Shown here piece after piece: positions 1 to 61,088 of a DNA stretch of 64,000 nt. A model generated the notes under the pieces. The model saw only the letters and a program-made list of their open reading frames with translations, had not been told where the DNA came from and searched no databases. Each line of letters starts with the position of its first letter. The first letter of the stretch is position 1. The translations under genes and the position numbers were made by a program. Origin of the DNA: Eledone cirrhosa (Eukaryota); contig OZ024743.1 in NCBI GenBank assembly GCA_964016885.1, positions 16,492,001-16,556,000 of the forward strand. The letters run 5' to 3'.

Positions 1-782
1 GGAACCAGCAGTGCCATAGCGTTGACATTTGGCCGGTGGCGGGGTCACTAAGTCAATCTATTTATATATTTTGCTAGCCTCTCCCTTGTCTAGTGATATC
101 GCCATTTTCCCCTCTCTTAAGTTAACAGATGTTAATGGGGGAATAGTGGTGGTAGCAATGAAGGAATGGTGGCGGCGGTGATGGGATAGTGGTAGCAATG
201 ATGGAAGGAGTGGTGGCGGCGGTGACTATAGTAATGGCGTTGTCGTTACTGAGTTTTGTTGAATAGATTGTAGTTAGTTTGATCTGTGTATCTATACGGT
301 TTGTCGCGTATGTTTAATATATGTGTTGACATATTTTCTTAATATTGGAATTAAACATTTTGTGAAAACTTGAGACAATAATAATAGTAATTATTATTAT
401 TATGCTGGGATTGGTGGTGGTGGTGGTGAAATTGCTGTTATCTGGCTGTTGTATTTAATGTACACAGAAGGGTGATGGGATAGGTGGTGTATTTCGTTTG
501 TGGTGTTGGTGAAATTGCTGTTATTTGGCTGTTCTATATAGTGTAGACAGAGGGGTTTTTTTCTTCCATTTATAACCATTTTCTTTTTTTAATATTTATA
601 ATACAAAATTGAATATTTGAGCGATATAACAGGATATTATGGATCCGAATTTCCTGAGAGCTGGGTCTGGTGCTTTATGTACCATTTATACTAAGAATTG
701 TTATTTCACAATTGATTTAAATATGTTAAAAATCAAAAACTTACGGGAGCGATTTCATGACCTTCTATCCACCACGTGCGTT
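1..782 (-). mobile_element. possible 5' end and ORF1 N-terminus of another LINE, head-to-head with copy A1
   Basis: Minus strand has an AT-rich leader, ATGs near 569-578 and ACC/AAC-rich low-complexity coding-like sequence resembling the ORF1 N-termini of B and C; starts at the (GAA)n tract; no diagnostic domain in the window. Confidence 0.3.
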
Positions 783-837
783 TTCTTCTTCTTCTCCTTC
801 TTCTTCTTCTTCTTCTTCTTCTTCTTTTCTTCTTCTT

Positions 838-868
<31 letters not shown>

Positions 869-885
869 TTATTATTATTATTATT
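783..885. repeat. compound (TTC)n-(TTA)n microsatellite abutting the 5' end of Tx1 copy A1
   Basis: Read directly: (TTC)n about 783-865, then (TTA)n 866-885, then GAATGC element start. Confidence 0.95.
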
Positions 886-1101
886 GAATGCTATGGTTGA
901 CGGAGGCTCGGTTCTGTAAGGTATTGTAAATTTTGAACGCTATAACAATTGTAAATTGTTTAAAACTTTAACGAACTTGTAGACAAAAACACCCTCCTCC
1001 TCGTGAGAGGCATCTTTCTGCCCGTTATTTGGCCCTTCGGGGTTAAATAACTGCTTATTGGGGTTTTGTGCCCAATATTTATTTTAAACAAAAAAAACAA
1101 C

Positions 1102-3218
1102 ATGGCTACGAAAAAGAATTTTCATAGGTCACTCCCACTTATCCGTCTTCTTCTTCCTCAATCATCACTACAGCAGAGAGAAGATTGTCTCTCTCCCTCC
1201 CTTCTTTAAATGTGTCTCTCTCCCTCCCTTCTCTTTCGCAAGCGACGACAGAAAAGAAAAGTCTCGTGCAAAGCGTGCAAGATTTCTCCACGACGACGAC
1301 GACAACGACGAAACAGGTGTGCGGGATACACGAAAACCTATTTCATTCGTCGGACGTCAGGAATAATAGCAGTAGCAGCCGTAATAACAACAGCAACAGT
1401 GACAATGAAAACAACAGTAGCAGCCGCAACAGCATCACCAGCAGCATAAACAACAACAGCATTAGCAGCAGCAACACCAACAACAACCACAGCAACAGCG
1501 GCGGAGGCAGTAGTCGTAGTACCTGCAGCGACAAAAAAAGTAACAGCAGCTCTGACGACAACAACAACAACAGCAGCAAAGAAAAACCAATCTCGTTTGC
1601 AAGTATCGCGAAGAACCTGGAAACAATCCTCATAACAAATGAGGAATTAGAGGAAGCGAAGAAGATGGTGACAAAGACTGGACACCGAGCAATCTGCAAG
1701 GCAGGGGGAAAATTTTTCGAAACCCAACAGCACTGTACGGTCACGTACCGTACAGTAAGTACAAAATCCCATAGTGTTGAAAGAGCCACAGAGGCTGAAA
1801 TACAAAAAGCCTTGGGGTTTGTGTGGCAGCGGAAAACGCACATCACCCGAGGCAAAAAATATGCCACCGTAGACGTACTTTTTGCCACACCCCAGGAGGC
1901 AAAGGCTCAATCCATAGTGACCCTAAGGAGCGAGGAAATGGTGTTGGTGCCCTCCTACTGCGGGCAAAAAATTGTGAGGGTCAAACTGACCCACGTCCCC
2001 CCCTCCCCCCCCCCCCCCGGGATGGCCCCTTCTTGGCTGGCCGCGTCCGTCCTCGTCGGAATCGAGGACAAAACAACTGTACTGCAAGTACAGAAAAAAG
2101 TAAGAGAAGATTGGGTCGGCACCTCCATTGAGATGTTAATCCAAACCAACCAGGAGTGCATCGAAGCTATCCCGGATGTGATAGACTTCGATAACGGCAC
2201 TCAACTGCCCATAAGTGTTGAGGGCAAACGCCCGAATTTCTTTCGCTGTGGATCGAAGACTCACCTCAGGGCCTTCTGCAACGAGAAGACCCTGAGAAAG
2301 GAGAAAACCCCCCTCCTTCCGAAACCGGTTCCACGGCTACCAGCAACAGGACAAGCGGCAACCAGGAACGATAGGTCCGTGGCACCCATACCTACGCCAC
2401 GGAAATCAAAAACAGCAGCAGCAGTAGAAATATTAACAACAACAACAGTAATACCAACTGCAGCTGCAACAGAGACTCCAGTGCAAACATCACCAACAAC
2501 AACAAGTGAAAGAGTGGAGCAGGTAACCCTCCCCGACCTCACATAATCAGACATGGAGTGTGAGGTGGGAGAGGGATGGCAAAAGGTCGTAAGAAGGCAC
2601 AAACGCAGAAGCAGCGCATCGTCGCCTTTGAAAAGGGAGGAAAAGAAATGAGAAAAGGGTAAAGTCTACTGCAAAGAGACTCACAGCAGCAATACCACTA
2701 ACACCATCACCACCCACACTAGAACCACCATCACCACCGGCGACAACCCCACCGCCAACAACACCTTCAACACCACTACCACAAGCACCAACATCGCGAA
2801 CACAACAACAAAACACACACACCCAGCAACAACGACAAAAATTAGCAGAACCACACCCCACCTCCAGAAAAACAAATGCACGGCAATAAATACACACAAC
2901 AAGAAACTAATGACTTACATAATTGAACACACAGACATTTCACAACACGACTACATAATATCAGCACCGATCAAAACGCCAACTAACATAAGACTGCTAA
3001 AAATAGCACAGAAAAAATACACAGACATTAAAACGAAATTCCCCAACGCGGTTGGTGATTTCAGGGACCTAGGAGGAACTATCAATCGAAGAGTATATTC
3101 GGACATACTCATAGAAGAGCCGACGACCAGCCGAAGGGACGATTCAACGGTCCCTTCACCAGACGATCAAGTGAAAAGGGATGTAAAAACCATCCCTCCT
3201 CTACGAAAAGTACGGTAA
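1102..3218 (+). pseudogene. ORF1 (gag-like) of copy A1, disrupted
   Basis: ATG at 1102; N/S-rich tract, central conserved domain, degraded knuckle (FFRCGSKTHLRAFC), T/P-rich tract; frameshifts and stops (e.g. TAA 2544-2546) relative to A2. Confidence 0.9.
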
Positions 3219-3253
3219 GTGGACTTTCCTATCTTTTCCACTCTATTTTAAAC

Positions 3254-6200: not shown

Positions 6201-6642
6201 GGCATGGAGGTGCCGTCAGCCGGGCATGTCCGAGATGCGCGCAGGGCGACGAAACCGTCCTGCGCGCACTCGTCCAGTGTCCGAAAATTGCTGACTTGTG
6301 GGTTTATGTCGAACACCTGCTGTCGCGTTTAGGACGGTTCCGGCTATCATCTGAGTCCATCGTGAGGATTGCTCCGCCCTCCTCCTTTAGCCGGGAAGGG
6401 CAGGCAGTTTTTAACTGTCTGGTGGCCATGGCGAAAAGATAGTATGGTGGACACGTTTGAAAGGGCTGAAGACGAACACTTACCTCTTCGGTGATGCTCT
6501 GATTGACTTTTTCAAATTTCATTTGAAAAGGAAAATCAGAGTAGAGAGGGAAGTGCTCTCTTCCCAGCATTTTGTTGAAAGATTGGTGAGAGAAGCAAGA
6601 ATGGCCCGAGTGAATGGGCCTACTCTGAGTATATATCTGTAA
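3254..6642 (+). pseudogene. ORF2 (APE endonuclease + reverse transcriptase + C-terminal Cys/His zinc motif) of copy A1, disrupted
   Basis: ORF-track fragments 3282-4133, 4195-4677, 4990-5565, 5834-6442 and 6457-6642 match the intact ORF2 at 41892-45311 (GDWN, TDHK, SPGLDG, QGCPLS, YADD). Confidence 0.95.
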
Positions 6643-7132
6643 ATTAAAGGTGGACAACTGGGAGAGGGCACTTGCCTTGGTGGTCAGGGTCATTGTGGCT
6701 TTTTAATGGGCTTTCTCCACAAATCTCCCTCCGAAGTCTCAACCCTATTGGGGAATTTTTCATTGTTATTTTTTGTTACATCCTCTGTTTTTGTTTTTTA
6801 CACGCAGAAATGCCCATTTGTACCGTCCTGTATTGTCCTGCACTGTCCTTAATGTCTACTTTATGTAAACCCTTGTGGTTAATAAAGAAATCATTATTAT
6901 TATTATTATTATTATTGAATGCCATGGTTGACGGAGGCTCGGCTCTGTAAGGTATAGTAATTTTTAACCGTTAAAACAATTGTAAATTGTTTAAAACTTG
7001 AACGAAATTGTTGATAAAGACACCCTCCTCCTCGTGAGAGGGGTCTTTCTGTCCGTTATTTGGCCCTTCGGGGTTAAATAACCAGTTATTGGGGTTTTGT
7101 ACCCAAAATTTCATTTTAAACAAAAAAACAAC

Positions 7133-9229
7133 ATGGCTACGAAAAAGAAATTTCATACGTCACTCCCACTCATTCCGTCTTCTTCTTCCTCAATCATCAC
7201 TACAGCAGAGAGAAGATTGTCTCTCTCCCTCCCTTCTTTAAATGTGTCTCTCTCCCTCCCTTCTCTTTCGCAAGTGACGAAAGAAAAGAAAAGTCTCGTG
7301 CAAAGCGTGCAATGTTTCTCCACGACGACGGCGACAGCGACGAAACAGGTGTGCGGGAAATACGAAAACCCAGTTCATTCGTCTGACGTCAGGAATAATA
7401 GCAGTAGCAGCCGTAATAACAACAGCAACAGTGACAATGAAAACAACAGTAGCAGCCGCAACAGCATCACCAGCAGCATAAACAACAATAGCATTAGCAG
7501 CAGCAACACCAACAACAACCACAGCAACAGCGGCGGAGGCAGTAGTCGTAGTACCTGCAGCAACAACAAAAGTACCAGCAGCTCTGACAACAACAACAAC
7601 AGCAGAGAAAAACCAATCTCATTTGCAGGTATTGCGAAAAACTTGGAAACAATCCTCATAACAAATGAGGAATTAGAGGAAGCGAAGAAGATGGTGACAA
7701 AGAACGGACACCGAGCAATCTGCAAGGCAGCGAAAAATTGTTTCGAAACCCAAGAGCACTGTACGGTCACGTACCGTACAGTAAGTACAAAATCCCGTAG
7801 GGTGGAAAGAGCCACAGAGGCCCAAATACAAAAAGCCTTGGGGTCTGTGTGGCAGCGGAAAACGCACATCACCCGAGGCAAAAAATATGCCACCGTAGAC
7901 GTACTTTTTGCCACACCCCAGGAGGCAAAGGCCCAATCAGTAGTGACCCTAAGGAGCGAGGAAATGGTGTTGGTGCCCTCCTACTGTGGGCAAAAAATTG
8001 TGAGGGTCAAACTGACCCACGTCCCCCCCGGAATGACCCCTTCTTGGCTGGCCGCGTCTGTCCTCGTCGGAATCGAGGACAAAACAACTGTACTGCAAGT
8101 ACAGAAAAAAGTAAGAGAAGATTGGGTCGGCTCCTCCATTGAGATGCTAATCCAAACCAACCAGGAGTGCATCGAAGCTATCCCGGATGTGATAGACTTC
8201 GATAACGGCACTCAACTGCCCATAAGTGTTGAGGGCAAACGCCCGAAATGCTTTCACTGTGGATCGAAGACTCACCTCAGGGCCTTCTGCAACTAGAAGA
8301 CCCTGAGAAAGGAGAAAACCCCCCTCCTTCCGAATCCGGCTCCACGGCTACCAGCAACAGGACAAGCGGCAACCAGGAACGATAGGCCCGTGGCACCCAT
8401 ACCCACTCCACGGAAATCAAAAACAGCAGCAGCAGTGGAAATACTAACAACAACAACAGCAATACCAAATGCAGCTGCAACAGAGACTCCAGTGCAAACA
8501 TCACCAACAACAACAAGTGAAAGAGTGGAGTTGGTACCCCTCCCCGACCTCACAGAATCAGACATGGAGTGTGAGGTGGGAGAGAGACGGCAAAAGGTCG
8601 TAGGAAGGCACAAACGCAGAAGCAGCGCATCGTCGCCTTTGAAAAGGGAGGAAAGAAATGAGAAAAGGGTAAAGTCTACTGCAAAGAGACCCACAGCAGC
8701 AACAACACCAACACCATCACCACCCACACTAGCGCCACCATCACCACCGGCGACAACCCCACCGCCAACAACACCTTCAACACCACCACCACAAGCACCA
8801 ACATCGCAAACACAACAACAAAACACACACACCCAGCAACAACGACAAGAAAATAGCAGAACCACACCCCACCCCCAGAAAAACAAATGCACGGCAATAA
8901 ATACACACAACAAGAAACTAATGACTTACATAATTGAACACACAGACATTTCACAACAGGACTACATAATACCAGCACCAATCAAAAAGCCAACTAACAT
9001 AAGACTGCTAAAAATAGCACAGAAACAATACACAAATATTAAAACGAAATTCCCCAACGCAGTTGGTGATTTCAGGGACCTAGGAGGAACCATCAATCGA
9101 AGAGTATACTCAGACATTCTCTTAGAAGAGCCGACGACCAGCCGAAGGGACGATTCAACGGTCCCTTCACCAGACGATCAAGTGAAAAGGGATGTAAAAA
9201 CCATCCCTCCTCTACGAAAAGTACGGTAA
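7133..9229 (+). pseudogene. ORF1 of copy A2, about 698 codons with a single premature TAG at 8294-8296
   Basis: ORFs 7097-8296 and 8390-9229 are in the same frame; CCHC knuckle CFHCGSKTHLRAFC; A1 and A3 have GAG at the stop position. Confidence 0.92.
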
Positions 9230-9264
9230 GTGGTCTTTCCCATCTTTTCCACTCTATTTTAAAC

Positions 9265-12682: not shown

Positions 12683-12930
12683 ATTAAAGGTGGAAAACTG
12701 GGAGAGGGCACTTGCCTTTGTGGTCAGGGTCATTGTGGCTTTTTACTGGGCTTTCTCCACAAATCTCCCTCCGAAGTCTCCCCCCTATTGGGGAATTTTT
12801 CATTGTTATTTTTTGTTACATCCTCTGTTTTTGTTTTTTACACGCAGAAATGCCCATTTGTACCGTCCTGCATTGTCCTGCACTGTCCTTAATGTCTACT
12901 TTATATAAACCCTTGTGGTTAATAAAGAAA

Positions 12931-12975
<45 letters not shown>

Positions 12976-13197
12976 TTATTATTGGCGACCTACGTAGTAA
13001 ATCGTATCATCGTAAGATTCGCAAAGTTTTGTTATTTTCAGTTGTTTAAAAATGCCATTCATGGAAAATTGTTATTGTTAACTGTATATAAGTGCACATA
13101 CATTGTTATCTGAAAAAGACACCCAAAAAGATTGGGGCCTTGAGCCCAAAACTTAAACTTTTATAATTATCAAACAAACATTTTTCTTTGAAAAATC

Positions 13198-15136
13198 ATG
13201 GCTGACTCAGAGTCACTCCTTTCTCACAAACTAAAACCTCACACCGAGACCACCATTGTAAATATTACTACGTTTGCCAACACTGAAATATAAACAGTAG
13301 CAATATTTTTAATTTGTCTCTGGCAGACATTCATTTCCCACCATTACCAATGACTGCAGATGTTAAAGCCGCCACCACCACCACCACCGCGACAACCACC
13401 ACCCTCACCACCACTGCGACAACAGAAACAAAAGAAAAAATAAATTAACTCGTGATATCGAAATGAATTCAACCAAAATGAACTCTTCCACACCGAACAC
13501 CACTGACGCCACCACCACCACAACTGAAACTAAAATTAATAATAACAAAAATAACGATAACAACAACAGCAACAATGACATTAAGAAAACCACCCTGATT
13601 TTGCCACAGTAGCAAAACAGTGCGAAGCATTTCAAGTAACTTAGGAGGAATTAGAAGAAACCAAAACAATAGTAAAGAAAGATGGGTACGGGGTCAGCCC
13701 CCCCCCACACCTAATAAAATGGAGTATCGGCGCCTATGCACCGTGTCCTATCTAACAATTAATATAAAATCGCGCCGATTGGAACTGGCATCCGAGTCTC
13801 AAATCCCAAATGCTTTGGGACATGTGTGGGCAAAAAACCCCACATCAGTCGTGGGCAGAAGTATGGAACCGTGGACGTGTTCTTTGAAACACCACAGGAG
13901 GCTAGAAAACACTCCATGGCCCCATTAAGAAGTGACGACTTCACACTCGTCCCAAGCTATTGTGGCCAGAGACTCGTAAAGATCAGCGTCACCCATGTTC
14001 CACCGACCCTGAAATTCCCTGGCTAATAGCTGCCGTCCTCGCCAGCATCGAAGCCAACACCAAGATAATCGAAATAGCGAAAGAAAAGCAGGAGAACTGG
14101 TCCGGATCTGGGATGGAGCTCCTGATCCAAGCGGACCAAAAAAGCATTGAGGAGATCCCAGAGGTAATAGACCTCACTGACGGCAGCCACCTCACCGTAA
14201 TTGTCGAGGGCAGAAGGCCTAGGTGTGTCGTTTGTGGTGAAGGAACCCACCTAAGGGCTTTCTGCCCTCAGGCTAAAAGGTTGAGGCCACCTCTCCTAAC
14301 CATCCCAGTGACTCAACCATCAACACCGCCAGCAGCAGAGATGGCAGCAACAACTGTAGCAGCAACAACAGAAGCAACTGTAACCACAACAACCCCAGCA
14401 AAAGTAGCAAAACCAACATCACCACCACCCAACGCGTCAGAACTAGCACCAGCGCCTACACCATCCACCACGCCACAACCAAAACTAACGCCTGTGGAGG
14501 ATCTTCCACTCCCCGGCCTATCACAACTGGAGACAGATTGTGACGACGAGGAGTGGTAAACGGTATCAGGAAAAAAGTAAAAAAGAACCCCAAAAGAAAA
14601 AAATTCTCTTCCTTCCCCTTCCAAAAACAAAATACAGAGGCAAACAAATATACTATCAAACAAAAAAGTTAGGACAGATATGCCACCATCCACACCAGCA
14701 TCATCAACCCCATCACCCCAAACACCAACACCATCACCATCATTAACCACAACACCACCATCACCTACAACACAAAAGTCACCAAAAAGCGAAACAGAAA
14801 CAAACCCACAACAAACACAAATAAAACAAAACAACCAAAACTATACACACTACACAGCATTAAATTTGAACAACCAATTATTACACTACATCCAACACAA
14901 CACCAGCATCACAGAAAAAAATACACAAAAACCCAAAAGTTCACACCAACTCCACAAAACAAACCACTCGCTTCATACAGAAAACGTACATGACACTAAA
15001 ACAAAAATTCCACAAAGAAATCGGAGACTTCCGACAAGCACTCTCCAGGAGGATTTATAAAGACATCCTTCCTGATGAGGCCACAAGCAGTGAAAATGAT
15101 GGAGAAACCGTCCTTCCTCTACGAGAAGGAAGGTAA
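13198..15136 (+). pseudogene. ORF1 of variant B, frameshifted
   Basis: ATG 13198; fragments 13826-14026, 13960-14559, 14680-15060; CCHC knuckle; ends AGG TAA, equivalent to CGG TAA in A. Confidence 0.85.
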
Positions 15137-15170
15137 GTGGTCTTTCCCATCTTTTCCACTACATTTCAAC

Positions 15171-18100
15171 ATGACCTCACTCAAAATAGGCAGCATAAAT
15201 GCGCGTGGCTTGGGACCGTCATGGAAGCAGGGCCACCTGCTCAACGACCTCAGATCACTAAACATATATGTAGTGGCCATCAGCGAGACCAGAATACGGA
15301 AGCACGGGCCTTCGCACCGATCTTTGGCTGCTACAATGTGTACGCATCTCCCAGCCGCCTGGGATCGGGGGGGGGGGCGTAGTTGCTGTGTACTTTCGGA
15401 GAGGTTTGGATATTGCCATACGGGCCATCTTCCTGGACACAGAAGGGAAGTTGGTGGTGCTGGAGGTGACCAGCGGAGACGGGCAAGCTTTCAGGCTAGT
15501 GGCCGTCTATGCTCCGACAGGAGCAGGGCGGCCTGATTTCTTCCGGCGTCTGGAGAACTTTCTTAGAACGTCCCGCTCTTTAGTGTTAGTGGGCGACTGG
15601 AACGGGATCTTAGATGCACGCTGGGACTGTGCGGGATTAGCGGATAGGGGAGGAGGGTGCAGGAGTCTCACCAACCTGCTCATGCGTTTTGAACTATCTG
15701 ACAGGTACCGATTGGATTTCCCGGATGTGCCAATGTGGACTTGGACAAATCGCATATGGTCATCCAGATCATATCTAGATAGAGTATTTTGTAGGGAAAT
15801 AGATAGGTCTAGCATAGGCTGTCCACAATTCAAGACAGTCAGCTACACGGACCACAAATTCGTGATCTGTGTGCTTGACTTAGATAGGCTTCGTAGACGA
15901 GGACCCGGCTACTGGAAGCTAAACGTCTCCTTACCAGCGCGCAAGGCCTACAGAGACCGGATTAGCGAACAAGTTAAGCGGGCGTTGACGGGGGCCATCG
16001 TCAACAACAAGTGCTGGTTTGCTCTGAAAAGAGCAATTAGAATAGAGTCCATTAGGTTTAGTAAGGCTGTAGCAATAGAGAAAAATAGAGCAGAATTAGT
16101 TAGAAAATTAGACGAGCCGCTTAGCATAGGCATCGCGACCGACGTACTTGCGGCGAAATTGGCCCTTCACCAATTCTTCAATGCAAAGCACGAAGGCTGC
16201 GTTGTCAGAGCTAGATTGCCTGCTCTCAGACACGAGGGGACAAAAGCCGTTCAATGGGCCCGAGTGGGGGAGGCGCGGCCTGGCAACAAAGCCACGATCC
16301 GGTCTTTGGTGGACCACGACGGGCGCATGCTACTCGATCCCTGGAAAATGTGTGAAGCTTTTCAGCGACACTTCGCACCGCTGTTCGGGGACAGCGGCGG
16401 GCCGGATCGAGAGATGGATTTTAGTGTCTACCTCGACGGACTGCCGCGGCTCTCGGCCACTGAGGCGGAGTGTTGCGAAAAGCCGATAACAGCCGCTGAA
16501 GTACGGGAGGCAATGACTGGCTGCATAACGGGTAAATCGCCTGGTTTGGATGATCTGCCCTATGGACTTTACGTACAGATGCCAGACTTGTTCAGAGGCT
16601 TCTTGTCGGACGTCTACTGCAACTGGCAACAGAACGGGAGAATTCCCAGCTCTGTGAGCCGAGGAGCGGTGGCGCTGCTGAGAAAGGATCCGAACAATGG
16701 GGATAATATAGATAATTTCAGGCCCATACTGTGCTATACACAGAGTTCAAGATTTTGGCCAAGTTGCTAGCAAAGAGGTTGGCGCTTGTCGTTGGTGGTG
16801 TGCGCCATTCCCGACAGATCCATCCACGACAACCTCCACCTCATGCGATACATCGTAGAGAGGGTAGCTATGGAACCTGGCACGGGTGGGTCCTTGATCA
16901 ATTTAGATCAGTCGAAAGCTTTCATTAGGGTCGACCATCGTTACATAGCGGCAGTCCTGAGGGCGGCTGGCTTTGGGCCCGTCTTCAGAGGCTGGATCGC
17001 TGCCATGCACAGCGACATCTGCTCTGTGGTGAGAGTGAACGGTCACCTTTCGGAACCGTTCAACATCATGCGCTCGGTCCGCCAATGATGTCCCCTCTCG
17101 TCCCTCTTGTACGTATTGATACACGAGCCATTACTGCACAAACTGGTGACGTTGAGGTGTGTCCCCTGTACTAGGATGCGGAAGATCCGTGTCAGCATAT
17201 GCGGACGATGTCACCGTAGTGGTGTCGAACGCCCAACAAATAGAGGAGATCGGCACTACAATAAGAGAATACGAAGCTGTGACAGGAGCAATGATCAACC
17301 AGGAAAAGTCAGTGGGCCTGCAGCTCGGCACCTGGAGAGGCAGGTCCATGCCGTCCAACAGAGTCGTCGGGCGCTGGAGGGACGGACCGGTTAATTTGCT
17401 AGGGGTCTGTCAGACGGACAAACACTGGGACGAGGTGACGAGCAGATTTGCTCCTCTCACCCATAAATGGGCGGAGAGTAAGCTATCCCTGAAAGGTCGA
17501 GCGGAGGTGGCTAACACGTACATCGCGTCCGTCATCTACTACCGGCTGACCGTTATAACTTGTCCTAAGCCCCGCCTGACTGCACTGGAGCGTTTGCTCT
17601 TTCGCTTTTTGTGGAAGGCACGCGCTCCTATGGTCAGGCGGTCCATCTGCTGTCAACACCCGCTATGTGGAGGGCTGGGCATGCCGTGGCTAATGATGCC
17701 CAGACACGCGCTCAGGCTACGACATCTCCACCTCTTCCTCGACGGGTATCAGGTGTGGTCGCCGTTTTCTAGACACGTCTTTCCCCAGAGCTGCAGTCCT
17801 GGGTCAAGCGAAGACCGAGAGGGAGCGCTTGGAGACTGGAATGTCTTCAGGCGCTCACAGCCCTCGACTAATCGGGCAATGTGATCGGTGGAAACTCCAC
17901 ATTGGCGTTCTATAGAGGATTAGTGGAGGGGAAGAGCGACGATGCACTTGGGGAAACTCTAGGCGTCGACGAAAATCAACTAGCCAATCTCTTCGGAAGG
18001 ACTTTCGGTCCTGGGCCTATGGACAACTTCCAGAAATCCCTGGCCTGGCAGTGCTACCGAGCAGCTTTGCCAGTTCGGGATAAACTCTACAGGCATGGAG

Positions 18101-18534
18101 GTGCCTTCACCCGGGCATGTCCGAGATGCGCGCAGGGCGACGAAACCGTCCTGCACGCACTCGTCCAGTGTCCGAGCATGCTGACTTGTGGGTTTATGTC
18201 GAAGACCTGCTGTCATGTGTAGGACGGCTCCAGCTATCAGCTGAGTCCATCGTGAGGATTTGCCGGCCCTCTCCCTGTACCCGGGAAGGGCAGGCATTTT
18301 TTATTTGTCTGGTGGCCATGGCGAAAGAGATAGTATGGTGGACACGTTTGAAAGGGCTGAAGACGAGCACTTACCACTTCGGTGATGCCCTTATTAAGTT
18401 TTTAAAATTTCATTTGAAAAGGAAAATCAGGGTAGAGGGGGAAGTGCTCTCTTCCCAGCATTTTGTTGAAAGATGGGTGAGAGAAGCAATTATGGCCCGA
18501 GTGAATGGGTCACACTCTGAGTTTTTGTCTGTAA
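15171..18534 (+). pseudogene. ORF2 (APE-RT-Zn) of variant B, multiple frameshifts
   Basis: MTSLKIGSINARG start; fragments 15388-16770, 16786-17088, 17159-17884, 17881-18222, 18117-18539. Confidence 0.92.
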
Positions 18535-19068
18535 ATTAAAGGTGGAAAACTGGGAGAGGGCACTTTCCCTGGTGGTCAGGGACACTGTGGCCTTTTAATG
18601 GGCTTTCCACAAATGTCCCTCGGAAGTCTCCCTCCTATTGGGAAATTTTTCATTGTTATTTTTTATTACATCCTCTGTTTTTTTTACACGCAGAAATGCC
18701 CATTTGTAGCATTCTGTATTGTCCTGTACTGCCCTTAATGTCTACTTTACGTAAACCATTGTGGTTAACAAAGAAAGCATTATTATTAATATTATTGTTA
18801 TTATTATTATTATCTTGTCATATTATTCTTTTAATATTGATTTAGGCATTAAATAACAATTTAATTTTTATTAAACCAAAATCTTAGTCACCATCTTGTT
18901 ACGGCAAAAACAATAACAGTGTATGTACGTTTAATGATTAGAATCTACACAACCTATCCATCAAGAATTTTCTCAATTCACATTTCTCTTATAAAAAAGA
19001 GAATTTCATTTTACCAATCGATTTTTTATTTCTTGTTATTATGGAATTATCTTATTATCTCTCTCTTC

Positions 19069-21037: not shown

Positions 21038-21128
21038 TGTTTCTTCTATTGGCACAAGGCCAGCAATTACCCAGTAGATTACTGGTACTTTATTTTATCG
21101 ACCCTGTAAGGATGAAAGGCAAAGTTAA
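21038..21128 (-). mobile_element. 5'-truncated SINE inserted in the hAT subterminal region
   Basis: Matches the 3' half of the SINEs at 33505 and 53607; flanked by a 19-bp TSD CTAAGCTA(T/G)TTGAGATAAT (21019-21037 and 21129-21147). Confidence 0.9.
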
Positions 21129-29319: not shown

Positions 29320-29830
29320 TAAGCTGTCTTCAGAGACCCGGAGCGTCTCATATAGGGAAACGGCAATAGAGTCCAAATAGCTGTGTCAGAAGGTGACTTG
29401 TGGTTAGAGTGAATGGTTCCCTCTCGGAACTGTTCAACATCATGCACTCGGTTCGGCAAGATTATCCCCACTCGTTCCTGTTGCATGCAATAACTCTCAA
29501 GCCCTTACTACACAAATTGGAGACGTTGAGGGGGCATTCAGGGAAATGTAGGGACCAGGGTGATCCATGTTAACATATGTCGACGATATCACAGTCAGTG
29601 TGTTGAGGAGCAAACATATCAATGTGATCGGCACTGTCCGAGTAAATACGAAGAGTTGACAGGAGCGAACATTAACTAGGAAACGGCATTGGGCTTGCAG
29701 CCCGACACATGAAGAAGCAGACGCATGTCGTCCAACAGCCTCGTCTGATGCTAAATAGGCAGACAGAGCGGCAAATTGCTCGGAGTCTGGTTCGGTCCAG
29801 ACCTCCAGATGGAGAAGAACTGGTAATATC
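29320..29830 (+). pseudogene. old Tx1-family RT fragment
   Basis: DNA similarity to A ORF2 (GTTAGAGTGAATGG..TCGGAACTGTTCAACATCATGCACTCGGTTCGGCAAG; TATGTCGACGAT = YVDD; GGAGTCTGGTTCGGTCCAGACCTCCAG); preceded by an AAC/ACC-rich ORF1-like tract. Confidence 0.85.
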
Positions 29831-33696: not shown

Positions 33697-35623
33697 CAGG
33701 ACGATTTGAATTGTTTCATGAACACACCTTCACTTATAGGTTCCTTCTGGTAATGAGTCATTTTCCATCGAGTTCGTTTCTTCTAACTTGTGAGTGAGTT
33801 ATTATGAAATTCGTCTCCAACCATATATATACATCCATATGCACATACATAAATGCATAAATACTTTACCCCAATTACAGATTCATTGAAAATGATCATA
33901 GACACTCCCCTACTTTCTCTTGAAAAATATAAATAAACTGTTGACATCGGATTATGTACTGGAAGGCAACGTTTGATATAATCTGACAAAACTATTATTA
34001 CATACATATTAAATGTAAAGAGTTACATTTTCCTCAACTTGTTTTTATAGGATTTCAACTAAATCTCGTAATATAGATGAGGTGTAGAGTACGATAATTA
34101 AAATGATTCATGGATGTGATAAATATCATTAGCAGAATGTATTAACAGGATCGTAATCTCCTCCTAGTTTTTTCAATATATCATATTGGTGGCTATATAC
34201 AAAACCCTTAGTCATAAGAAAGGTTTTATTAGCAAATGTCTTAATCTCACTTTGACCTTCCACAAATAAATCTTGCACATATAGATATAACCTTGTACAT
34301 ATTTAAAATTGTACATTTGCTTTATAAGTGTTTCTAATTTAGGCATGAAGCCATTAGATTTGAGGGATGGGAAAGTAACTAAATGATATTTGATTTTACT
34401 GACATCGGAATGATGAAAGGCAAATTGAACCCATAATTCAATAAGCTGGAGCAAATGCTGATAAACATGATTTCGACGCCCTAACGACTCTTCAAATGAT
34501 CACCCGAGAGTGACATTATAATTATGTCGAATAAAGTAGTATTTAGTTATGAATATTTAGTGAAATTAAATCGTATTAAAATCTAACATTTTAGCTCATC
34601 CTTCATATTCAAATATGTGCAAATCTTAAACATTTGTTTCCTTTTTAAATGAAAGTTTACACAAAGCTAGGGCATCATACATTTTCACGTATTGATTGAT
34701 TAGACATATGAGATCTATAAGAAAACTTGATTTCCAATTCTACTGCAAAGAACATTATTCTCCCTGTACAGCGTTCGACACTTGTTGATTTCACACAATA
34801 AACAACAAATGAACTGACCATAAAAATCGACTACTTAATTCCGTTTATTTATGAGTTCATTTTAAAGTATGCATTAGTAAAAATAACACATAACATGTAA
34901 TAAATAATGTTGCCAGGAAACCTTCATAAATCGCAACTATAAGGAACATGCAAAGAAATCAAAAAGAGAAACAAAATGAAAGAATCGCAGTCATAAAATA
35001 TTAGATAATAAAAAAGTAATTGACAGAACTGAAAAGACTGCTATCGAAATAAAATGTCCAAACAAAATTATTAATTCAATAGCACATTTTGTCAACAATA
35101 AAATCAATAGTTTTACAACATGGGAGGGCTGAGACCTCCATAGTTTCTCGATATTTTTACGAAACGTCAAACAATCTAATCACGTGAAATCGACCATAAT
35201 GAAAATATAAAATACCTCATAGACAAATAGTCTGATATCTTCTGCACAAACAAATATGTCCACCAAGTCTGAGAATCTATGGGAATTCAATGCCTCGGCC
35301 CGAAAATATTAATCAATAATAATAATAATAATAATAACAATAACGATTTCATTTATTAGCCACAAGGGCCGACATGTAGGGGACAGTACAAAGACAGGGA
35401 CAGTGGGGGTTTACAATAAGGTCAAGTAAAATTGCACAATGTCAAGACTAATTTAACAAAGAAAATATAAAAATATAAAATAAACTATGTATAAATATAA
35501 CAAAATAAATTCCCCGATAGGGGGTAGAAGACCCTGGGGTGACTCGGGTACCCCACCAATCCTGAACCACCCTGCGCTTCTAGGGCACCGAGAGAGAGCA
35601 CCCCTCTCCTCAAGTTAGCTAGC

Positions 35624-40946: not shown

Positions 40947-41173
40947 AATTTGTTGGGGGGTGGGGAGGCGATTTTTTTTCGAAGTTTTTTAAAAATAAAT
41001 CTGAATATTTGGGCTTAAAGCCCGAATATTGAGAGGTATCCCGCTCTTTAAATCAAGATGTGTACCTTAAGTTTCGTTAACGACAAGAAAATACAAAAAA
41101 TGACACTTTAAACATCTTAAAGTTACGAAACATTTCCCCTGCAGATTTGTACTGTCTTCACACATGTGCAGCC

Positions 41174-41572
41174 ATAATAATAATAATAATAATGTATTCT
41201 TTATTAACCACAAGGGTTTACATAAAGTAGACATTAAGGACAGTACAGGACGGTACAAATGGGAATTTCTAGTGTTGGCAAACGTAGTAATATTTACAAT
41301 GGTGGTGTCGGTGTGAGGTGTTAGTTTGTGAGGAAGGCTCTCAGCTGCTTGGTGCAGAGGTGAATCAGCCATGAATTTTTGAAAGAAATTTTTTGATAAT
41401 CATAAAAGTTTAAATTTTGGGCACAAGGCCCCAATCTTTTTGGGTGTCCTTTTGGGAAAACAATGTATGTAGAGTTAACAATAAAAAATTTCAATAAATG
41501 GCAATTTTTAACAAAGGGAAACAACACACTTTTGCGGAGCTAACCATGATACGATTTACTACGTAGGTCGTC
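41174..41572 (-). mobile_element. 379-bp internally deleted non-autonomous derivative of variant B (41194-41572) plus (TTA)n tail
   Basis: 41572-41270 matches the B 5'UTR/ORF1 start (12984-13288); 41270-41194 matches the last about 75 bp of the A/B 3'UTR. Confidence 0.9.
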
Positions 41573-41631: not shown

Positions 41632-41891
41632 TTTCTTTATTAACCACAAGGGTTTACATAAAGTAGACATTAAGGACAGTGCAGGACAATGCAGGACGGT
41701 ACAAATGGGCATTTCTGCGTGTAAAAAAACAAAAACAGAGGATGTAACAAAAATAACAATGAAAATAACAATGAAAAATTCCCCAATAAGGGGGAGACTT
41801 CGGAGGGACATTTGTGGAGAAAGCCCAGTAAAAAGCCACAATGACCCTGACCACCAAGGCAAGTGCCCTCTCCCAGTTTTCCACCTTTAGT

Positions 41892-44800
41892 TTACAGATA
41901 TATACTCAGAGTCGGCCCATTCACTCGGGCCATTCTTGCTTCTCTCACCCATCTTTCAACAAAATGCTGGGAAGAGAGCACTTCCTTCTCTACTCTGATT
42001 TTCCTTTTCAAATGAAATTTGAAAAAGTCAATCAGAGCATCACCGAAGAGGTAAGTGCTCGTCTTCAGCCCTTTCAAACGTGTCCACCATACTATCTCTT
42101 TCGCCATGGCCACCAGACAGATAAAAACTGCCTGCCCTTCCCGGCTAAAGGAGGAGGGCGGGGCAATCCTCACGATAGACTCAGATGATAGCTGGATCCG
42201 TCCTAAACGCGACAGCAGGTGTTCGACATAAACCCACAAGTCAGCAATTTTCGGACACTGGACGAGTGCGTGCAGGACGGTTTCGTCGCCCTGCGCGCAT
42301 CTCGGACATGCCCGGCTGACGGCACCTCCATGCCTGTAGAGTTTATCCCGAACTGGCAAGGCTCCTCGGTAGCACTGCCAGGCCAGAGATTTCTGGAAGT
42401 TGTCCATAGGCCCCGGCCCGAAAGTTCTTCCGAAGAGATTGGCTAGTTGATTTTCGTCGACGCCTAGAGTTTCCCCAAGTACGTCGTCGCTCTTCCCCTC
42501 CACTAATCCTCTATAGAACGCCGAGGTAGAGTTTCCACCGATCACATTGCCCGATTGGTCGAGGGCTGTGAGCGCCTGAAGACATTCCAGTCTCCAGGCG
42601 CTCCCTCTCGGTCTTCGCTTGACCCAGGACTGCAGCTCCGTCAAGGAAACGAGCTGGGGAAAAACGCGTCTAGCAAACGGCGACCACACCTGATCACCGT
42701 CGAGGAAGAGGTGGAGATGTCGTAGCCTGAGCGCGTGCATGCGCATCATCAGCCACGGCATGCCCAGCCCTCCACGTAGCGGGTGTTGACAACAGATGGA
42801 CCGCCTGACCATCGGAGCACGTCCCTTCCACAAAAAGCGAAAGAGCAAACGCTCCAGCGCAGTCAGGCGAGGCTTAGGACAAGGTACGACGGTTAGGCGG
42901 TAGCAGATGACAGACGCGATGTACGCGTTAGCCACCTCCGCTCGACCTTTCAGGGATAGCTTCCTCTCCGCCCATTTCTGGGTGAGAGAAGCCACCCTGC
43001 TCGTCACCTCGTCCCAGTTTTTGTCCGTCTGGAGGTCCGGACCGAACCAGACCCCTAGCAATTTAACCGGTCCGTCCGTCCAGCGCCCGACGACGCTGTT
43101 GGACGGCATGGACCTGCCTCTCCAGGTGCCGAGCTGCAGGCCCACTGACTTTTCCTGGTTGATCATTGCTCCTGTCACCGCTTCGTATTCTCTTAGTGTA
43201 GTGCCGATCGCCTCGATGTGTTTGGCGTTCGACACCACTACGGTGACATCGTCCGCATATGCTGACACGGATCTTCCGCATCCTAGTTCGCGCGGGACTC
43301 CCCTCAACGTCTCCAGTTTGTGCAGTAATGGCTCGAGAGTCAATACGTACAAGAGGGACGAGAGGGGACATCCTTGGCGGACCGAGCGCATGATGTTGAA
43401 CGGTTCCGACAGGTGACCGTTCACTCTCACCACAGAGCAGATGTCGCTGTGCATGGCAGCGATCCAGCCTCTGAAGACGGGCCCAAAGCCAGCCGCCCTC
43501 AGGACTGCCGCTAGGTAACGATGGTCGACCCTATCGAAAGCTTTCGACTGATCTAAATTGATCAAGGACCCACCCGTGCCAGGTTCCCTAGCTACCCTCT
43601 CTACGATGTATCGCATGAGGTGGAGGTTGTCGTGGATGGATCTGTCGGGAATGGCGCATGTCTGCGCCTCTCCCACCAGACCACCAACGACAAGCGCCAA
43701 CCTCTTTGCTAGCACCTTGGCCAAAATCTTAAACTCTGTGTTTAGCAGAGTTATGGGCCGGAAATTGTCTATGTTATCCCCCTTGTTCGGATCCTTTCTC
43801 AGCAGTGCCACCGCTCCTCGGCTCACAGAACTGGGAATTCTCCCGTTCTGTTGCCAGTTGCAGTAGACGTCCGCCAAGAGGCCTCCGAACAAGTCTGGCA
43901 TCTGTACGTAAAGTTCATAGGGCAGACCATCCAAACCAGGCGATTTACCCCTTGTGCAGCCAGTCATTGCCTCCCGTACTTCAGCGGCTGTTATCGGCTT
44001 TTCGCAACACCTCGCCTCAGTGGCCGAGAGCCGCGGCAGTCCGTCGAGGTAGACACTAAAGTCCATCCCTCTACCCGGCCCCCCGCTGCCCCCGAACAGC
44101 TGAGCGAAGTGTCGCTGAAAAGCTTCACACATTTGCCCGGGATCGAGTAGCATGCGCCCGTCGTGGTCCACCAAAGACCGGATCGTGGCTTTGTTGCCAC
44201 GACGCGCCTCCGCCACTCGGGCCCATTGAACCGCTTTCGTCCCCTCGTGTCTGAGAGCACGCACCCTAGCTCTGACAACGCAGCCTTCGTGCTTTGCATT
44301 GAAGAATTGGTCAAGGGCCAATTTCGCCGCAAGCACGTCGGTCGCAATGCCTTTGCTAAGCGCCTCGTCTAATTTTCTAACTAGTTCTCCCTCTGCTCTA
44401 TTTTTCTCTATTGCTAAAGCCTTACTAAATCTAATCGATTCTATTCTAATCGCTCTTTTCAGAGCAAACCACCACTTGTTGTTGACGATGGCCCCCGTCA
44501 ACGCCCGCTTAACTAGTTCGCTAATCCGGTCTCTGTAGGCCTTGCGCGCTGGTAAGGACGCGTTTAGCTTCCAGTAGCCGGGTCCTCGTCTATGAAGCCT
44601 ATCTAAGTCAAGCACACAGATCACGAATTTGTGGTCCGTGTAGCTGACTATCTTGAATTGTGGACAGCCTATGCTAGACCTATCTATTTCCCTACAAAAT
44701 ACTCTATCTAGATATGATCTGGATGACCCTATGCGGTTTGTCCAAGTCCACATTGGCACATTCGGGAAATCCAATCGGTACCTGTCAGACAGTTCAAAAC

Positions 44801-45311
44801 GCCTGAGCAGGTTGGTGAGGCTCTTGCACCCTCCACCCCTATCCGCTAATCCCACACAGTCCCAGCGTGCATCTAAGATCCCGTTCCAGTCGCCCACTAA
44901 CACTAAAGAGCGCGACGTTCCAAGAAAGGTCTCCAGACGCCGGAAGAAATCAGGCCGCCCTGCTCCTGTCGGGGCATAGACGGCCAGTAGCCTGAAAGCT
45001 TGCCCGTCTCCGCTGGTCACGTCCAGCACCACCAGCTTACCCTCTGGGTCCAGGAAGATGGCCCGTATGGCGAGATCCAAACCTCTCCGAAAAAGTACAG
45101 CAACTCCTCCACCGGATCCAGGACGGCTGGGAGATGCGTACACATCGTAGCCGCCGAAGATCGGTGCGAAGGGCCGTGCTTCGGAGATTCTGGTCTCGCT
45201 GATGGCCACTACATCTATGTTTAGTGACCTGAGGTCGTTGAGCAGGTGACCCTGCTTCCATGACGACCCCAAGCCACGCGCATTTATGCTGCCTATTCTG
45301 AGTGAGGTCAT
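41892..45311 (-). CDS. ORF2 polyprotein, 1139 aa: APE endonuclease, reverse transcriptase, C-terminal CCHC-like zinc motif
   Basis: Uninterrupted ORF; GSINARG, ISETR, VYAP, GDWN, YLDRVF, TDHK; SPGLDG, FRPITLLN, DQSKAFDRVDH, VRQGCPLS, YADD, KLLGV; CPRCAQGDETVLHALVQC. Confidence 0.97.
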   Translation of the reverse strand: MTSLRIGSINARGLGSSWKQGHLLNDLRSLNIDVVAISETRISEARPFAPIFGGYDVYASPSRPGSGGGVAVLFRRGLDLAIRAIFLDPEGKLVVLDVTSGDGQAFRLLAVYAPTGAGRPDFFRRLETFLGTSRSLVLVGDWNGILDARWDCVGLADRGGGCKSLTNLLRRFELSDRYRLDFPNVPMWTWTNRIGSSRSYLDRVFCREIDRSSIGCPQFKIVSYTDHKFVICVLDLDRLHRRGPGYWKLNASLPARKAYRDRISELVKRALTGAIVNNKWWFALKRAIRIESIRFSKALAIEKNRAEGELVRKLDEALSKGIATDVLAAKLALDQFFNAKHEGCVVRARVRALRHEGTKAVQWARVAEARRGNKATIRSLVDHDGRMLLDPGQMCEAFQRHFAQLFGGSGGPGRGMDFSVYLDGLPRLSATEARCCEKPITAAEVREAMTGCTRGKSPGLDGLPYELYVQMPDLFGGLLADVYCNWQQNGRIPSSVSRGAVALLRKDPNKGDNIDNFRPITLLNTEFKILAKVLAKRLALVVGGLVGEAQTCAIPDRSIHDNLHLMRYIVERVAREPGTGGSLINLDQSKAFDRVDHRYLAAVLRAAGFGPVFRGWIAAMHSDICSVVRVNGHLSEPFNIMRSVRQGCPLSSLLYVLTLEPLLHKLETLRGVPRELGCGRSVSAYADDVTVVVSNAKHIEAIGTTLREYEAVTGAMINQEKSVGLQLGTWRGRSMPSNSVVGRWTDGPVKLLGVWFGPDLQTDKNWDEVTSRVASLTQKWAERKLSLKGRAEVANAYIASVICYRLTVVPCPKPRLTALERLLFRFLWKGRAPMVRRSICCQHPLRGGLGMPWLMMRMHALRLRHLHLFLDGDQVWSPFARRVFPQLVSLTELQSWVKRRPRGSAWRLECLQALTALDQSGNVIGGNSTSAFYRGLVEGKSDDVLGETLGVDENQLANLFGRTFGPGPMDNFQKSLAWQCYRGALPVRDKLYRHGGAVSRACPRCAQGDETVLHALVQCPKIADLWVYVEHLLSRLGRIQLSSESIVRIAPPSSFSREGQAVFICLVAMAKEIVWWTRLKGLKTSTYLFGDALIDFFKFHLKRKIRVEKEVLSSQHFVERWVREARMARVNGPTLSIYL

Positions 45312-45346
45312 GTTTAAAATAGAGTGGAAAAGATGGGAAAGACCAC

Positions 45347-47435
45347 TTACCGTACTTTTGGTAGAGGAGGGATGGTTTTTACATCCCTTTTCACTTGATC
45401 GTCTGGTGAAGGGACCGTTGAATCGTCCCTTCGGCTGGTCGTCGGCTATTCTAAGAGAATGTCTGAGTATACTCTTCGATTGATGGTTCCTCCTAGGTCC
45501 CTGAAATCACCAACTGCGTTGGGGAATTTCGTTTTAATATTTGTGTATTGTTTCTGTGCTATTTTTAGCAGTCTTATGTTAGTTGGCGTTTTGATTGGTG
45601 CTGGTATTATGTAGTCCTGTTGTGAAATGTCTGTGTGTTCAATTATGTAAGTCATTAGTTTCTTGTTGTGTGTATTTATTGCCGTGCATTTGTTTTTCTG
45701 GGGGTGTGGTTCTGCTATTTTCTTGTCGTTGTTGCTGGGTGTGTGTGTTTTGTTGTTGTGTTTGCGATGTTGGTGCTTGTGGTGGTGGTGTTGAAGGTGT
45801 TGTTGGCGGTGGGGTTGTCGCCGGTGGTGATGGTGGCGCTAGTGTGGGTGGTGATGGTGTTGGTGTTGTTGCTGCTGTGGGTCTCTTTGCAGTAGACTTT
45901 ACCCTTTTCTCATTTCTTTCCTCCCTTTTCAAAGGCGACGATGCGCTGCTTCTGCGTTTGTGCCTTCTTACGACCTTTTGCCATCCCTCTCCCACCTCAC
46001 ACTCCATGTCTGATTCTGTGAGGTCGGGGAGGGGTACCAGCTCCACTCTTTCACTTGTTGTTGTTGGTGATGTTTGCACTGGAGTCTCTGTTGCAGCTGC
46101 ATTTGGTATTGCTGTTGTTGTTGTTAGTATTTCCACTGCTGCTGCTGTTTTTGATTTCCGTGGAGTGGGTATGGGTGCCACGGGCCTATCGTTCCTGGTT
46201 GCCGCTTGTCCTGTTGCTGGTAGCCGTGGAGCCGGATTCGGAAGGAGGGGGGTTTTCTCCTTTCTCAGGGTCTTCTCGTTGCAGAAGGCCCTGAGGTGAG
46301 TCTTCGATCCACAGCGAAAGCATTTCGGGCGTTTGCCCTCAACACTTATGGGCAGTTGAGTGCCGTTATCGAAGTCTATCACATCCGGGATAGCTTCGAT
46401 GCACTCCTGGTTGGTTTGGATTAGCATCTCAATGGAGGAGCCGACCCAATCTTCTCTTACTTTTTTCTGTACTTGCAGTACAGTTGTTTTGTCCTCGATT
46501 CCGACGAGGACAGACGCGGCCAGCCAAGAAGGGGTCATTCCGGGGGGGACGTGGGTCAGTTTGACCCTCACAATTTTTTGCCCGCAGTAGGAGGGCACCA
46601 ACACCATTTCCTCGCTCCTTAGGGTCACTACTGATTGGGCCTTTGCCTCCTGGGGTGTGGCAAAAAGTACGTCTACGGTGGCGTATTTTTTGCCTCGGGT
46701 GATGTGCGTTTTCCTCTGCCACACAGACCCCAAGGCTTTTTGTATTTGGGCCTCTGTGGCTCTTTCCACCCTACGGGATTTTGTACTTACTGTACGGTAC
46801 GTGACCGTACAGTGCTCTTGGGTTTCGAAAAAATTTTTCGCTGCCTTGCAGATTGCTCGGTGTCCTTTCTTTGTCACCATCTTCTTCGCTTCCTCTAATT
46901 CCTCATTTGTTATGAGGATTGTTTCCAAGTTTTTCGCAATACCTGCAAATGAGATTGGTTTTTCTCTGCTGTTGTTGTTGTCGTCAGAGCTGCTGGTACT
47001 TTTGTTGCTGCAGGTACTACGACTACTGCCTCCGCCGCTGTTGCTGTGGTTGTTGTTGGTGTTGCTGCTGCTAATGCTGTTGTTGTTTATGCTGCTGGTG
47101 ATGCTGTTGCGGCTGCTACTGTTGTTTTCATTGTCACTGCTGCTGTTGTTATTACGGCTGCTACTGCTATTATTCCTGACGTCAGACGAATGAACTGGGT
47201 TTTCGTATTTCCCGCACACCTGTTTCGTCGCTGTCGTCGTCGTCGTGGAGAAACCTTGCACGCTTTGCACGAGACTTTTCTTTTCTTTCGTCGCTTGCGA
47301 AAAAGAAGGGAGGGAGAGAGACACATTTAAAGAAGGGAGGGAGAGAGACAATCTTCTCTCTGCTGTAGTGATGATTGAGGAAGAAGAAGACGGAATGAGT
47401 GGGAGTGACGTATGAAATTTCTTTTTGGTAGCCAT
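45347..47435 (-). pseudogene. ORF1 of copy A3: open for about 575 codons, then a small deletion (frameshift near 45705) and a stop at 45446
   Basis: ORFs 45639-47477 and 45446-45655 compared with A2 ORF1; knuckle CFRCGSKTHLRAFC is intact. Confidence 0.88.
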
Positions 47436-47649
47436 GTTTTTTTTGTTTAAAATGAAATTTTGGGTACAAAACCCCAATAACTGGTTATTTAACCCCGAAG
47501 GGCCAAATAACGGACAGAAAGACCCCTCTCACGAGGAGGAGGGTGTCTTTATCAACAATTTGGTTCAAGTTTTAAACAATTTACAATTGTTTTAACGGTT
47601 AAAAATTACTATACCTTACAGAGCCGAGCCTCCGTCAACCATGGCATTC

Positions 47650-53585: not shown

Positions 53586-53768
53586 AATAATAATAATAAT
53601 AATAATTGTTTCTACTTTAGGCACAAGGCCAGCAATTACCCAGTGCATTACTGGTACTTTATTTTATCGACCCCGTAAGGAGGAAAGGCAAAGTTAACCT
53701 CGGCGGGATTTGAACTCAGATCGTAAAGGGACGTAACTATGCTGGAAAGCATGGCGTCCGACCCTCTA

Positions 53769-56787: not shown

Positions 56788-57291
<504 letters not shown>

Positions 57292-57322
57292 AGATCAAAA
57301 GATGGTTAAAGGAGTTCCATGT

Positions 57323-57391
57323 ATTTTATTATGCGCATTTCAAAAACAAACATCATCATGCAATAATATTTGTGTTTCCATCAGATAAAAC
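57323..57391 (-). ncRNA. hammerhead ribozyme motif, sense-strand PLE2 copy with core change CTGATGG
   Basis: Reverse complement of 61020-61088 except A9>G in the core. Confidence 0.7.
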
Positions 57392-61019: not shown

Positions 61020-61088
61020 GTTTTATCTGATGAAAACACAAATATTATTGCATGATGATGTTTGTTTTTGAAATGCGCATAATAAAAT
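61020..61088 (+). ncRNA. type I hammerhead ribozyme motif in the PLE2 inverted pseudo-LTR
   Basis: Stem I TTTTAT/ATAAAA; core CTGATGA 61027-61033; long stem II; GAAA 61070-61073; palindromic stem III ATGCGCAT; AUA cleavage triplet ending at 61081. Confidence 0.85.

Follow-up and report, generated by a model that had tools for sequence, protein, structure and literature searches.

The closest described counterparts of the elements studied here are L1-clade LINEs of the Tx1 group that reside at microsatellites. Kibi, Koshi and crocodilian Tx1 are elements of this same class, and the available part of their description (PMC4494074) gives them two ORFs, an APE endonuclease, a reverse transcriptase (RT), insertion into microsatellites and tandem copies. 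In Octopus vulgaris, 13 recently active L1-Tx1 families are reported, with no detail on structure, in the accessible portion of PMC13282606. LINE 5'UTRs are usually viewed as replaceable promoters without conserved RNA structure. The window, by which we mean the whole 64,000-nucleotide stretch analysed, holds six long elements and one short derivative, arranged head to tail within (ATT)n runs. These share the listed features with Kibi, Koshi and crocodilian Tx1 and differ in the repeat, which is (ATT)n here, or (TATC)n in a sister group; the likeness to Tx1 is one of description.

The elements in the window are Tx1/L1-type LINEs. ORF2 encodes an APE endonuclease, an RT and a C-terminal zinc domain (zf-RVT), as in the intact 1139-amino-acid open frame of copy A3 (41892-45311, minus strand; domain matches to PF03372, PF00078 and PF13966). 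A separate upstream ORF1, a 598-amino-acid open frame in A3 (45639-47435, minus strand), has a core with two RRM-like domains predicted by a structure model and a CX2CX4HX4C knuckle; the Pfam zf-CCHC match falls under the cut-off in family J, and the motif is visible in the ORF1 cores. The target is a repeat, with the reservation that target and tail repeats are not fully separable: intact 5' ends follow (ATT)n in families A-I and (TATC)n-like repeats in J-M.

The genome searched was the 3.0-Gb animal assembly that contains the window. An endonuclease search gave 37,234 candidates at first look, and the 150 that were scored were 99-100% identical. Leaders were gathered through array neighbours and through protein and DNA searches, giving a sample of 14 families: A, B (three subfamilies) and C-I with (ATT)n ends, and J, K1, K2, L and M with (TATC)n-like ends (labels D-M were coined in this analysis). 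All families come from one genome, and the leaders of F, I, K1 and B3 are represented by one copy each. Leader length ranges from 202 to 230 nt. The A2 leader covers 216 nt (6917-7132, plus strand), from the G directly after the (ATT)n tail of A1 to the ORF1 ATG at 7133. An ORF1 tree that included unnamed relatives contained three well supported clades, A/B/D/H, C/E/F/G/I and J-M, across which ORF1 identity is about 30-37%. An earlier note on this DNA had described A, B and C as three families with largely unalignable 5'UTRs. However, their ORF1s are homologous (50-54% identity for B and 36% for C, each against A), and B copies carry an A-type ORF2 that is 93-97% identical, so the three leaders are related. 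A and B form one ORF2 lineage, yet their ORF1s are only about 50% identical (window 12984-18813); ORF1 places A with D and H, and ORF2 places A with B, the pattern of a swapped 5' module. Beyond this genome, an ORF1 word search of other species returned no match, ORF2 relatives in other species were 39-44% identical, and 80 metagenome loci were mostly 22-32% identical.

Several features of these copies and their surroundings should also be noted. Family E is very young (150 scored matches 99-100% identical) and forms a head-to-tail array at G000:C1:423366455-423419604, where the nine matches listed lie about 5.8 kb or double that distance apart, which suggests template jumping or repeated local insertion. 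At L200:3253-3840 an E copy passes, within its endonuclease region, into a truncated copy of A/B type, which makes this insertion chimeric. An A-type ORF2 in family E was considered and rejected, as it came from one chimeric locus. The short derivative, mini-B (41174-41572, minus strand), consists of some 300 nt from the 5' end of a B2 element fused to roughly 70 nt of tail. Its 5' part is most similar in the genome to B2 leaders, at 92% identity, and it looks like a single deleted copy rather than an amplified family. Several copies, as seen around window 750-885, lie directly behind another repeated element with a (TTC)n or TTC-rich end. The window also contains a 1.09-kb inverted repeat (57279-58344 and 60041-61132; 96.6% identity, strong GC skew), 37-bp tandem arrays at 55486-55684 and 56139-56284, and an old RT fragment at 29399-29823 that is about 75% identical to A and C; the best of its 40 scored matches reaches 76%, which leaves it without a close relative in that set.

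All 14 families carry a hairpin at one place in the leader, with the loop starting at +140 to +160, 48-74 nt upstream of the ORF1 ATG. In A2 this core hairpin (7055-7082, plus strand) has 12 predicted pairs, two of them G-U, and a UUCG loop closed by C-G; its pair probability is 1.0, and it folds at -14.4 kcal/mol in the sense direction versus -9.0 kcal/mol in antisense. The same hairpin is found in A1 (1024-1051, plus strand), A3 (47484-47511, minus strand) and the decayed copy A4 (53420-53447, minus strand). In B it lies at 13130-13151 (plus strand; loop at +156), where the fold is marginal and a rival fold shares its 5' arm, and in mini-B, which belongs to subfamily B2, at 41415-41436 (minus strand). 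The C hairpin (41004-41030, minus strand) has 11 perfect pairs in most genomic copies and one mismatch in the window copy. Most families have a further hairpin, of variable sequence, upstream of the core hairpin (7020-7047, plus strand, in A2). For each family, the best 30-nt fold centred in +140-160 was compared with 150 dinucleotide shuffles. It beat all of them in 10 of the 14 families (A, C, D, E, G, H, I, J, L and M); shuffles folded as well in 1-3/150 cases for B, 14/150 for K2, 15/150 for F (one decayed copy) and 88/150 for K1. No Rfam family reached the gathering score for 6500-7400 (13 weak matches) or for eight family loci.

Pairing of the two arms has been kept while their sequences changed. 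Arms of the same lineage pair in 104 of 121 cells, compared with 72.6 +/- 6.0 when arms are exchanged among 11 lineages, a result matched by 1 in 200,000 permutations; slid controls gave 38-56%. This count left out F, G and I and was made with a loop-anchored script because MAFFT misaligned mixed four- and five-base loops, as well as K1 in the alignment of four-base loops. The closing pair is C-G in 11/11 lineages. At the inner positions some lineages have C-G where others have G-C, and G-rich and C-rich arms trade sides. RNAalifold found double-sided changes in 8/12 pairs for seven four-base loops and in 10/11 pairs for five five-base loops, a set that includes the A site singled out in the earlier note (0/500 shuffles). 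Since stems were picked by eye, these covariation tests overstate the signal; that choice has less influence on the shuffle test by position and on the test of variant sites described below. With this reservation about hand-picked stems, compensatory changes are found at a homologous position, and the leader hairpin, whose fold is predicted, is a real, conserved leader RNA structure.

Variation within families is also low in the hairpins. Among A leader variants at a frequency of at least 5% in DNA contigs of one sequencing run, 0/21 fall in the two main hairpins, which make up 55 of 219 nt (P=0.0016). The A core hairpin alone is likewise free of variants (P=0.049), as are the first 39 nt of the A leader, and the sole variant in the B hairpin is a loop base. 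Descent of all families from a common ancestor could leave such hairpins as inherited relics with no function, and the 7089-7106 site in A as a passenger of duplication or recombination. For the core hairpin, retention of pairing through sequence turnover and the avoidance of this site by subfamily variants speak against that explanation, which we regard as highly improbable. Selection on an RNA structure is very probable.

The inverted repeat could alternatively act as double-stranded DNA within an internal promoter. It lies at a fixed distance from the 5' end, and Pol II promoters are usual in LINE 5'UTRs, according to the accessible sections of PMC2881922. In addition, the gap between sense and antisense folding energy is below 1 kcal/mol in C, E, G, H, I, J and L, so most families, which fold alike on both strands, do not tell RNA from DNA. 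K1, K2, L and M have a GGCG(A/G)AA 3' arm in common; K1 and K2 keep this sequence even though their outer pairing is lost, which hints at sequence recognition. However, the arms trade sides among families, a change that would not be compatible with a transcription-factor site. There are 7 G-U cells to 2 A-C cells in the 11-lineage count, and A and H have C-UUCG-G loops, features that point to the sense RNA as the acting strand. A DNA element is therefore distinctly unlikely.

The hairpin described in the earlier note was a different one for family A. All seven 5'UTR motifs that it quoted are present: the 13-nt motif lies at 1061-1073 in A1, 7092-7104 in A2 and 13135-13147 in B (plus strand), and at 41011-41023 in C, 41419-41431 in mini-B, 47462-47474 in A3 and 53398-53410 in A4 (minus strand). 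For the pattern GGGYNTTNNRCCC, the window contains 10 matches versus 0.34 expected, a number reached in 0/100 shuffles, with the limitation that it was derived from the same copies that it counts and that 4/7 motifs are copies of one family. Seven matches are within 5'UTRs and three outside. CTTGT alone is not enriched in the window (139 versus 149 expected).

A covarying, conserved 5'UTR hairpin, as proposed, does exist and extends to 14 families, wider than first seen, whereas the GGGY-N5-RCCC motif itself is restricted to A, B and C (3/14). Nor do these three families share one pentaloop. The probability of the pentaloop closing pair is 0.09 in young A, 0.05 in older A and 0.11-0.19 in B; it is 1.0 in C, the only family in which the proposed pairing dominates, yet there the loop is UUUAA. 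Family A prefers an 8-nt loop, so the A/G change that had been counted as covariation falls inside the loop. The preferred fold of this extra hairpin has five pairs in A2 (7087-7108, plus strand) and a seven-pair stem in A1 (1056-1077, plus strand), each with an 8-nt loop; the corresponding sites are 47458-47479 in A3 and 53394-53415 in A4 (both minus strand). Moreover, the A hairpin that corresponds by position to those of the other 13 families is 7055-7082, not 7089-7106: loops start at +151 in the A core hairpin, +156 in B and +157 in C, compared with +180 for the 7089-7106 hairpin. The latter is a second, weaker hairpin of the same kind, resembling the B hairpin. It may stem from a duplication or be an ancestral third hairpin, D and H having only weak hairpins at the equivalent place. 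In the youngest A subfamily, two of its outer pairs are gone (variant at 7107). With that loss and the weak D and H hairpins in its favour, absence of function is possible, if doubtful, for the extra A hairpin alone.

R2 protein binds 5' RNA as well as 3' RNA, and the earlier note had proposed, by analogy, that the 5' hairpin repeats the CTTGT signal of the 3' end. On that reading, ORF2p binds CUUGU hairpins at both ends and thereby completes full-length insertions. The 3' tail itself, judged by its sequence, qualifies well as a stringent-type signal. Of 153 hairpin-like sites that precede AATAA, 123 have a CTTGT loop; stems covary between families, and a host SINE has the same loop. In A2 the tail hairpin (12908-12926, plus strand) is followed by AATAAA and (ATT)n; its equivalents lie at 6868-6886 and 18754-18772 (plus strand) and at 35352-35370, 41200-41218, 41636-41654 and 47704-47722 (minus strand). 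In contrast to this nearly fixed loop, 5' loops vary (UUCG, UUUU, UUUA, UUCA, AUCA, UUUAC, UUUAA, UUUCU and CUUGA/CUUGU). A CUUG-like loop is found in only two families, and the conserved A hairpin has UUCG. B1 and B3 have CTTGA, and the last B loop letter is A rather than T in 55-71% of depth.

Profile comparisons gave a similar picture. On a LINE 3'-tail profile true tails score 30-35, whereas the best 5'UTRs score 6.5 and A scores 1.8 (28/300 shuffles). The best-scoring leaders do exceed most shuffles (B2 3/300, E 5/300, G 7/300), and in the SINE-tail comparison B alone stood out clearly (shuffles doing as well: B2 0/500, B1 1/500, B3 4/500, F 11/500, E 23/500). In B2, the subfamily of mini-B and the only form to show this, 11 nt agree exactly with the SINE 3' hairpin (BLAST E=0.12), and a C-G closing pair is present at both ends of the elements. 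Capture of a SINE as the leader was rejected, since similarity ends with the 11-mer. Given the base composition of leader loops, 5% of five-base loops are expected to differ from CTTGT at no more than one position. A search with an exact pattern for B copies consisting only of 5'UTR and ending in the hairpin plus (ATT)n, the retrocopies expected from priming use, gave 0 matches for this family; the same kind of pattern search did return matches elsewhere in this analysis. The resemblance between 5' and 3' loops is local to A and B.

The host SINE whose (ATT)n tail received A4 has its 3' hairpin, with the CTTGT loop, at 53620-53631 (minus strand); a second such hairpin is found at 21051-21062 (minus strand). 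As this abundant SINE has both the CTTGT hairpin and (ATT)n, it is likely mobilised by these LINEs, and its tails double as LINE insertion sites. It presumably resembles octopus SINEs. The sister group with (TATC)n ends and targets has CTCGT, CTAGT, CCTGT or CTTGT as 3' loop, and the (ATT)n and (TATC)n groups form a natural pair for studies of target and tail specificity.

Two-ended recognition had been offered as the reason why copies in the window are full length. In sixty evenly spaced 10-kb stretches (600 kb, mostly from the four largest contigs) there were 3 intact 5' ends versus 13 3' tails, showing that truncated copies are the majority and that full-length ones are over-represented in the window. 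The premise is true in part nonetheless, since 3/13 exceeds the human L1 share, about 7,000 of 500,000 copies in the available text of PMC2881922. Among 99 copies selected by ORF1, 78 extend to the 5' end; the break falls upstream of the hairpin in 7, inside the hairpin in 1 and downstream of it in 13, although apparent 5' breaks may also be later insertions. No pile-up of breakpoints at the hairpin was seen in these 99 copies, and the seven breaks upstream of it indicate that passing the hairpin is no guarantee of a complete 5' end. Of C copies retaining ORF1, 33/49 reach the exact 5' end, and families with UUUU or UUCA loops do so as often as any (29/30 in E). Taken together, the wider sample does not support a two-ended signal, which would have been the more surprising outcome, and we consider it very unlikely.

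What the leader hairpin may do is suggested by the ORF1 protein. The ORF1 core model has a pLDDT of 92.7, and Foldseek gave it 18 matches at E<=0.001 to tandem-RRM proteins, HuD and Sxl among them, at a low TM of about 0.33; the best structural matches are binders of U- or AU-rich RNA. The knuckle matches nucleocapsid zinc fingers, so that the core is predicted to comprise two RRM-like domains and a Gag-like zinc knuckle. In SART1, knuckles of ORF1p package the element's own RNA, as stated in the accessible part of PMC4120745. On the basis of the RRM-like core, the nucleocapsid-like knuckle and the SART1 precedent, we propose that the inverted repeat would fold as an RNA hairpin in the leader and that the element's own ORF1p would dock on it. 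Docking would nucleate RNA packaging and RNP assembly and damp further ORF1 translation. The data favour hairpin shape, closing pair and position over loop sequence as what would be read. LINE ORF1 proteins are generally non-specific RNA binders, which counts against docking, as does the finding that the human L1 5'UTR is dispensable once a promoter is supplied (PMC2881922, in the part available). If the hairpin is a selected RNA structure, the case for ORF1p as its partner is evenly balanced; the full sequence of docking, packaging and reduced translation is a tentative proposal, somewhat short of even.

Host machinery alone might account for the same structure, with the hairpin tuning scanning or initiation at the ORF1 AUG or shielding the RNA from 5' decay. 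The distance to the AUG is fixed, the hairpin is followed by an unstructured A/U-rich stretch before the ATG, loop sequence is free to vary, and several leaders contain upstream ATGs. In R2, a stable 5' fold raises template efficiency, which is read as decay protection in the available portion of PMC11331408. On the other hand, a structure that protects from decay should sit at the very start of the RNA, yet the fold there is weak (mean -3 to -4 kcal/mol per 30 nt), and the invariant C-G closing pair is explained no better than by ORF1p docking. We therefore view a purely host-directed role as unlikely.

The leader also contains motifs resembling splice donors. GTRAG occurs within the first 66 nt in 11/14 families versus 1.2 expected, at +31 in A2 (6947-6952, plus strand) and at +26 to +61 in the others. 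It often follows a CTCC-like motif and is absent in C, D and I. A second donor-like motif, G|GTAAGT, lies across the stop codon of ORF1 in A2 (9225-9233, plus strand), with equivalents at 3214-3222 and 15132-15140 (plus strand) and 45343-45351 (minus strand). It is a perfect donor consensus in families A-H, is not visible in J, and is followed by a pyrimidine tract in otherwise diverged neighbouring sequence. No spliced retrocopies of A or B were found: the one match to the A splice pattern is a 2-bp deletion, and eight matches to the ORF1-stop pattern are deletions without an AG acceptor. The search for an in-frame intron between ORF1 and ORF2 likewise gave no spliced copies. These motifs raise the possibility, in our view a slim one, of a retrovirus-like leader with a donor close to the promoter that binds U1 without splicing, a psi-like hairpin read specifically by ORF1p and a second, invariant donor on the ORF1 stop. 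If so, the A-rich transcript would be protected from early cleavage, picked for packaging and, in head-to-tail arrays, read through; RNA selection at the 5' end of a two-ORF LINE would then stand beside the usual 3'-end selection by ORF2p.

That a hairpin is held in place at about 30% ORF1 identity shows constraint at the RNA level. We found no description of a conserved 5'UTR hairpin in these LINEs in the literature covered, Repbase and most subscription papers being outside that coverage. The hairpin families form a small natural panel of compensatory variants for the question of RNA selection by ORF1p, and the clade is young and abundant, with tens of thousands of candidate matches, intact frames and a matching SINE tail, which makes the question directly testable.

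Retroviral psi hairpins are bound by nucleocapsid and lie downstream of the major splice donor. The leaders described here likewise have hairpins downstream of a donor-like motif, and the elements encode a protein that contains a CX2CX4HX4C knuckle. Unlike retroviruses, these are non-LTR elements whose protein has one knuckle plus RRM-like domains, the loops are U-rich rather than G-rich, and no spliced copies of A or B were found. Human L1 likewise has a conserved donor-like site in its leader, known from its 5'UTR splice donor and SpIREs; according to the available part of PMC5860796, that donor overlaps a RUNX3 site and yields spliced copies, whereas here no spliced A copy was seen. Like R2, these non-LTR elements have structured RNA in their untranslated ends, and the analogy goes little further. 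R2 is a single-ORF element that lacks a promoter and has a restriction-like nuclease and an HDV-like ribozyme (PMC11331408 and PMC11194090, in the sections available), none of which applies to these LINEs: ORFs, domains and Rfam matches gave no single-ORF arrangement, no restriction-like nuclease and no 5' HDV-like ribozyme. Stringent 3' stem-loops are described for UnaL2, ZfL2, SART1 and some plant and algal L1 elements, as LINE/SINE pairs, in the accessible portions of PMC3472496 and PMC5135761. In contrast to the leader hairpin, with its variable loop, longer stem and no tail-like score, the 3' tail of the elements studied here resembles those pairs in its covarying stem, its nearly fixed loop and a SINE in common.
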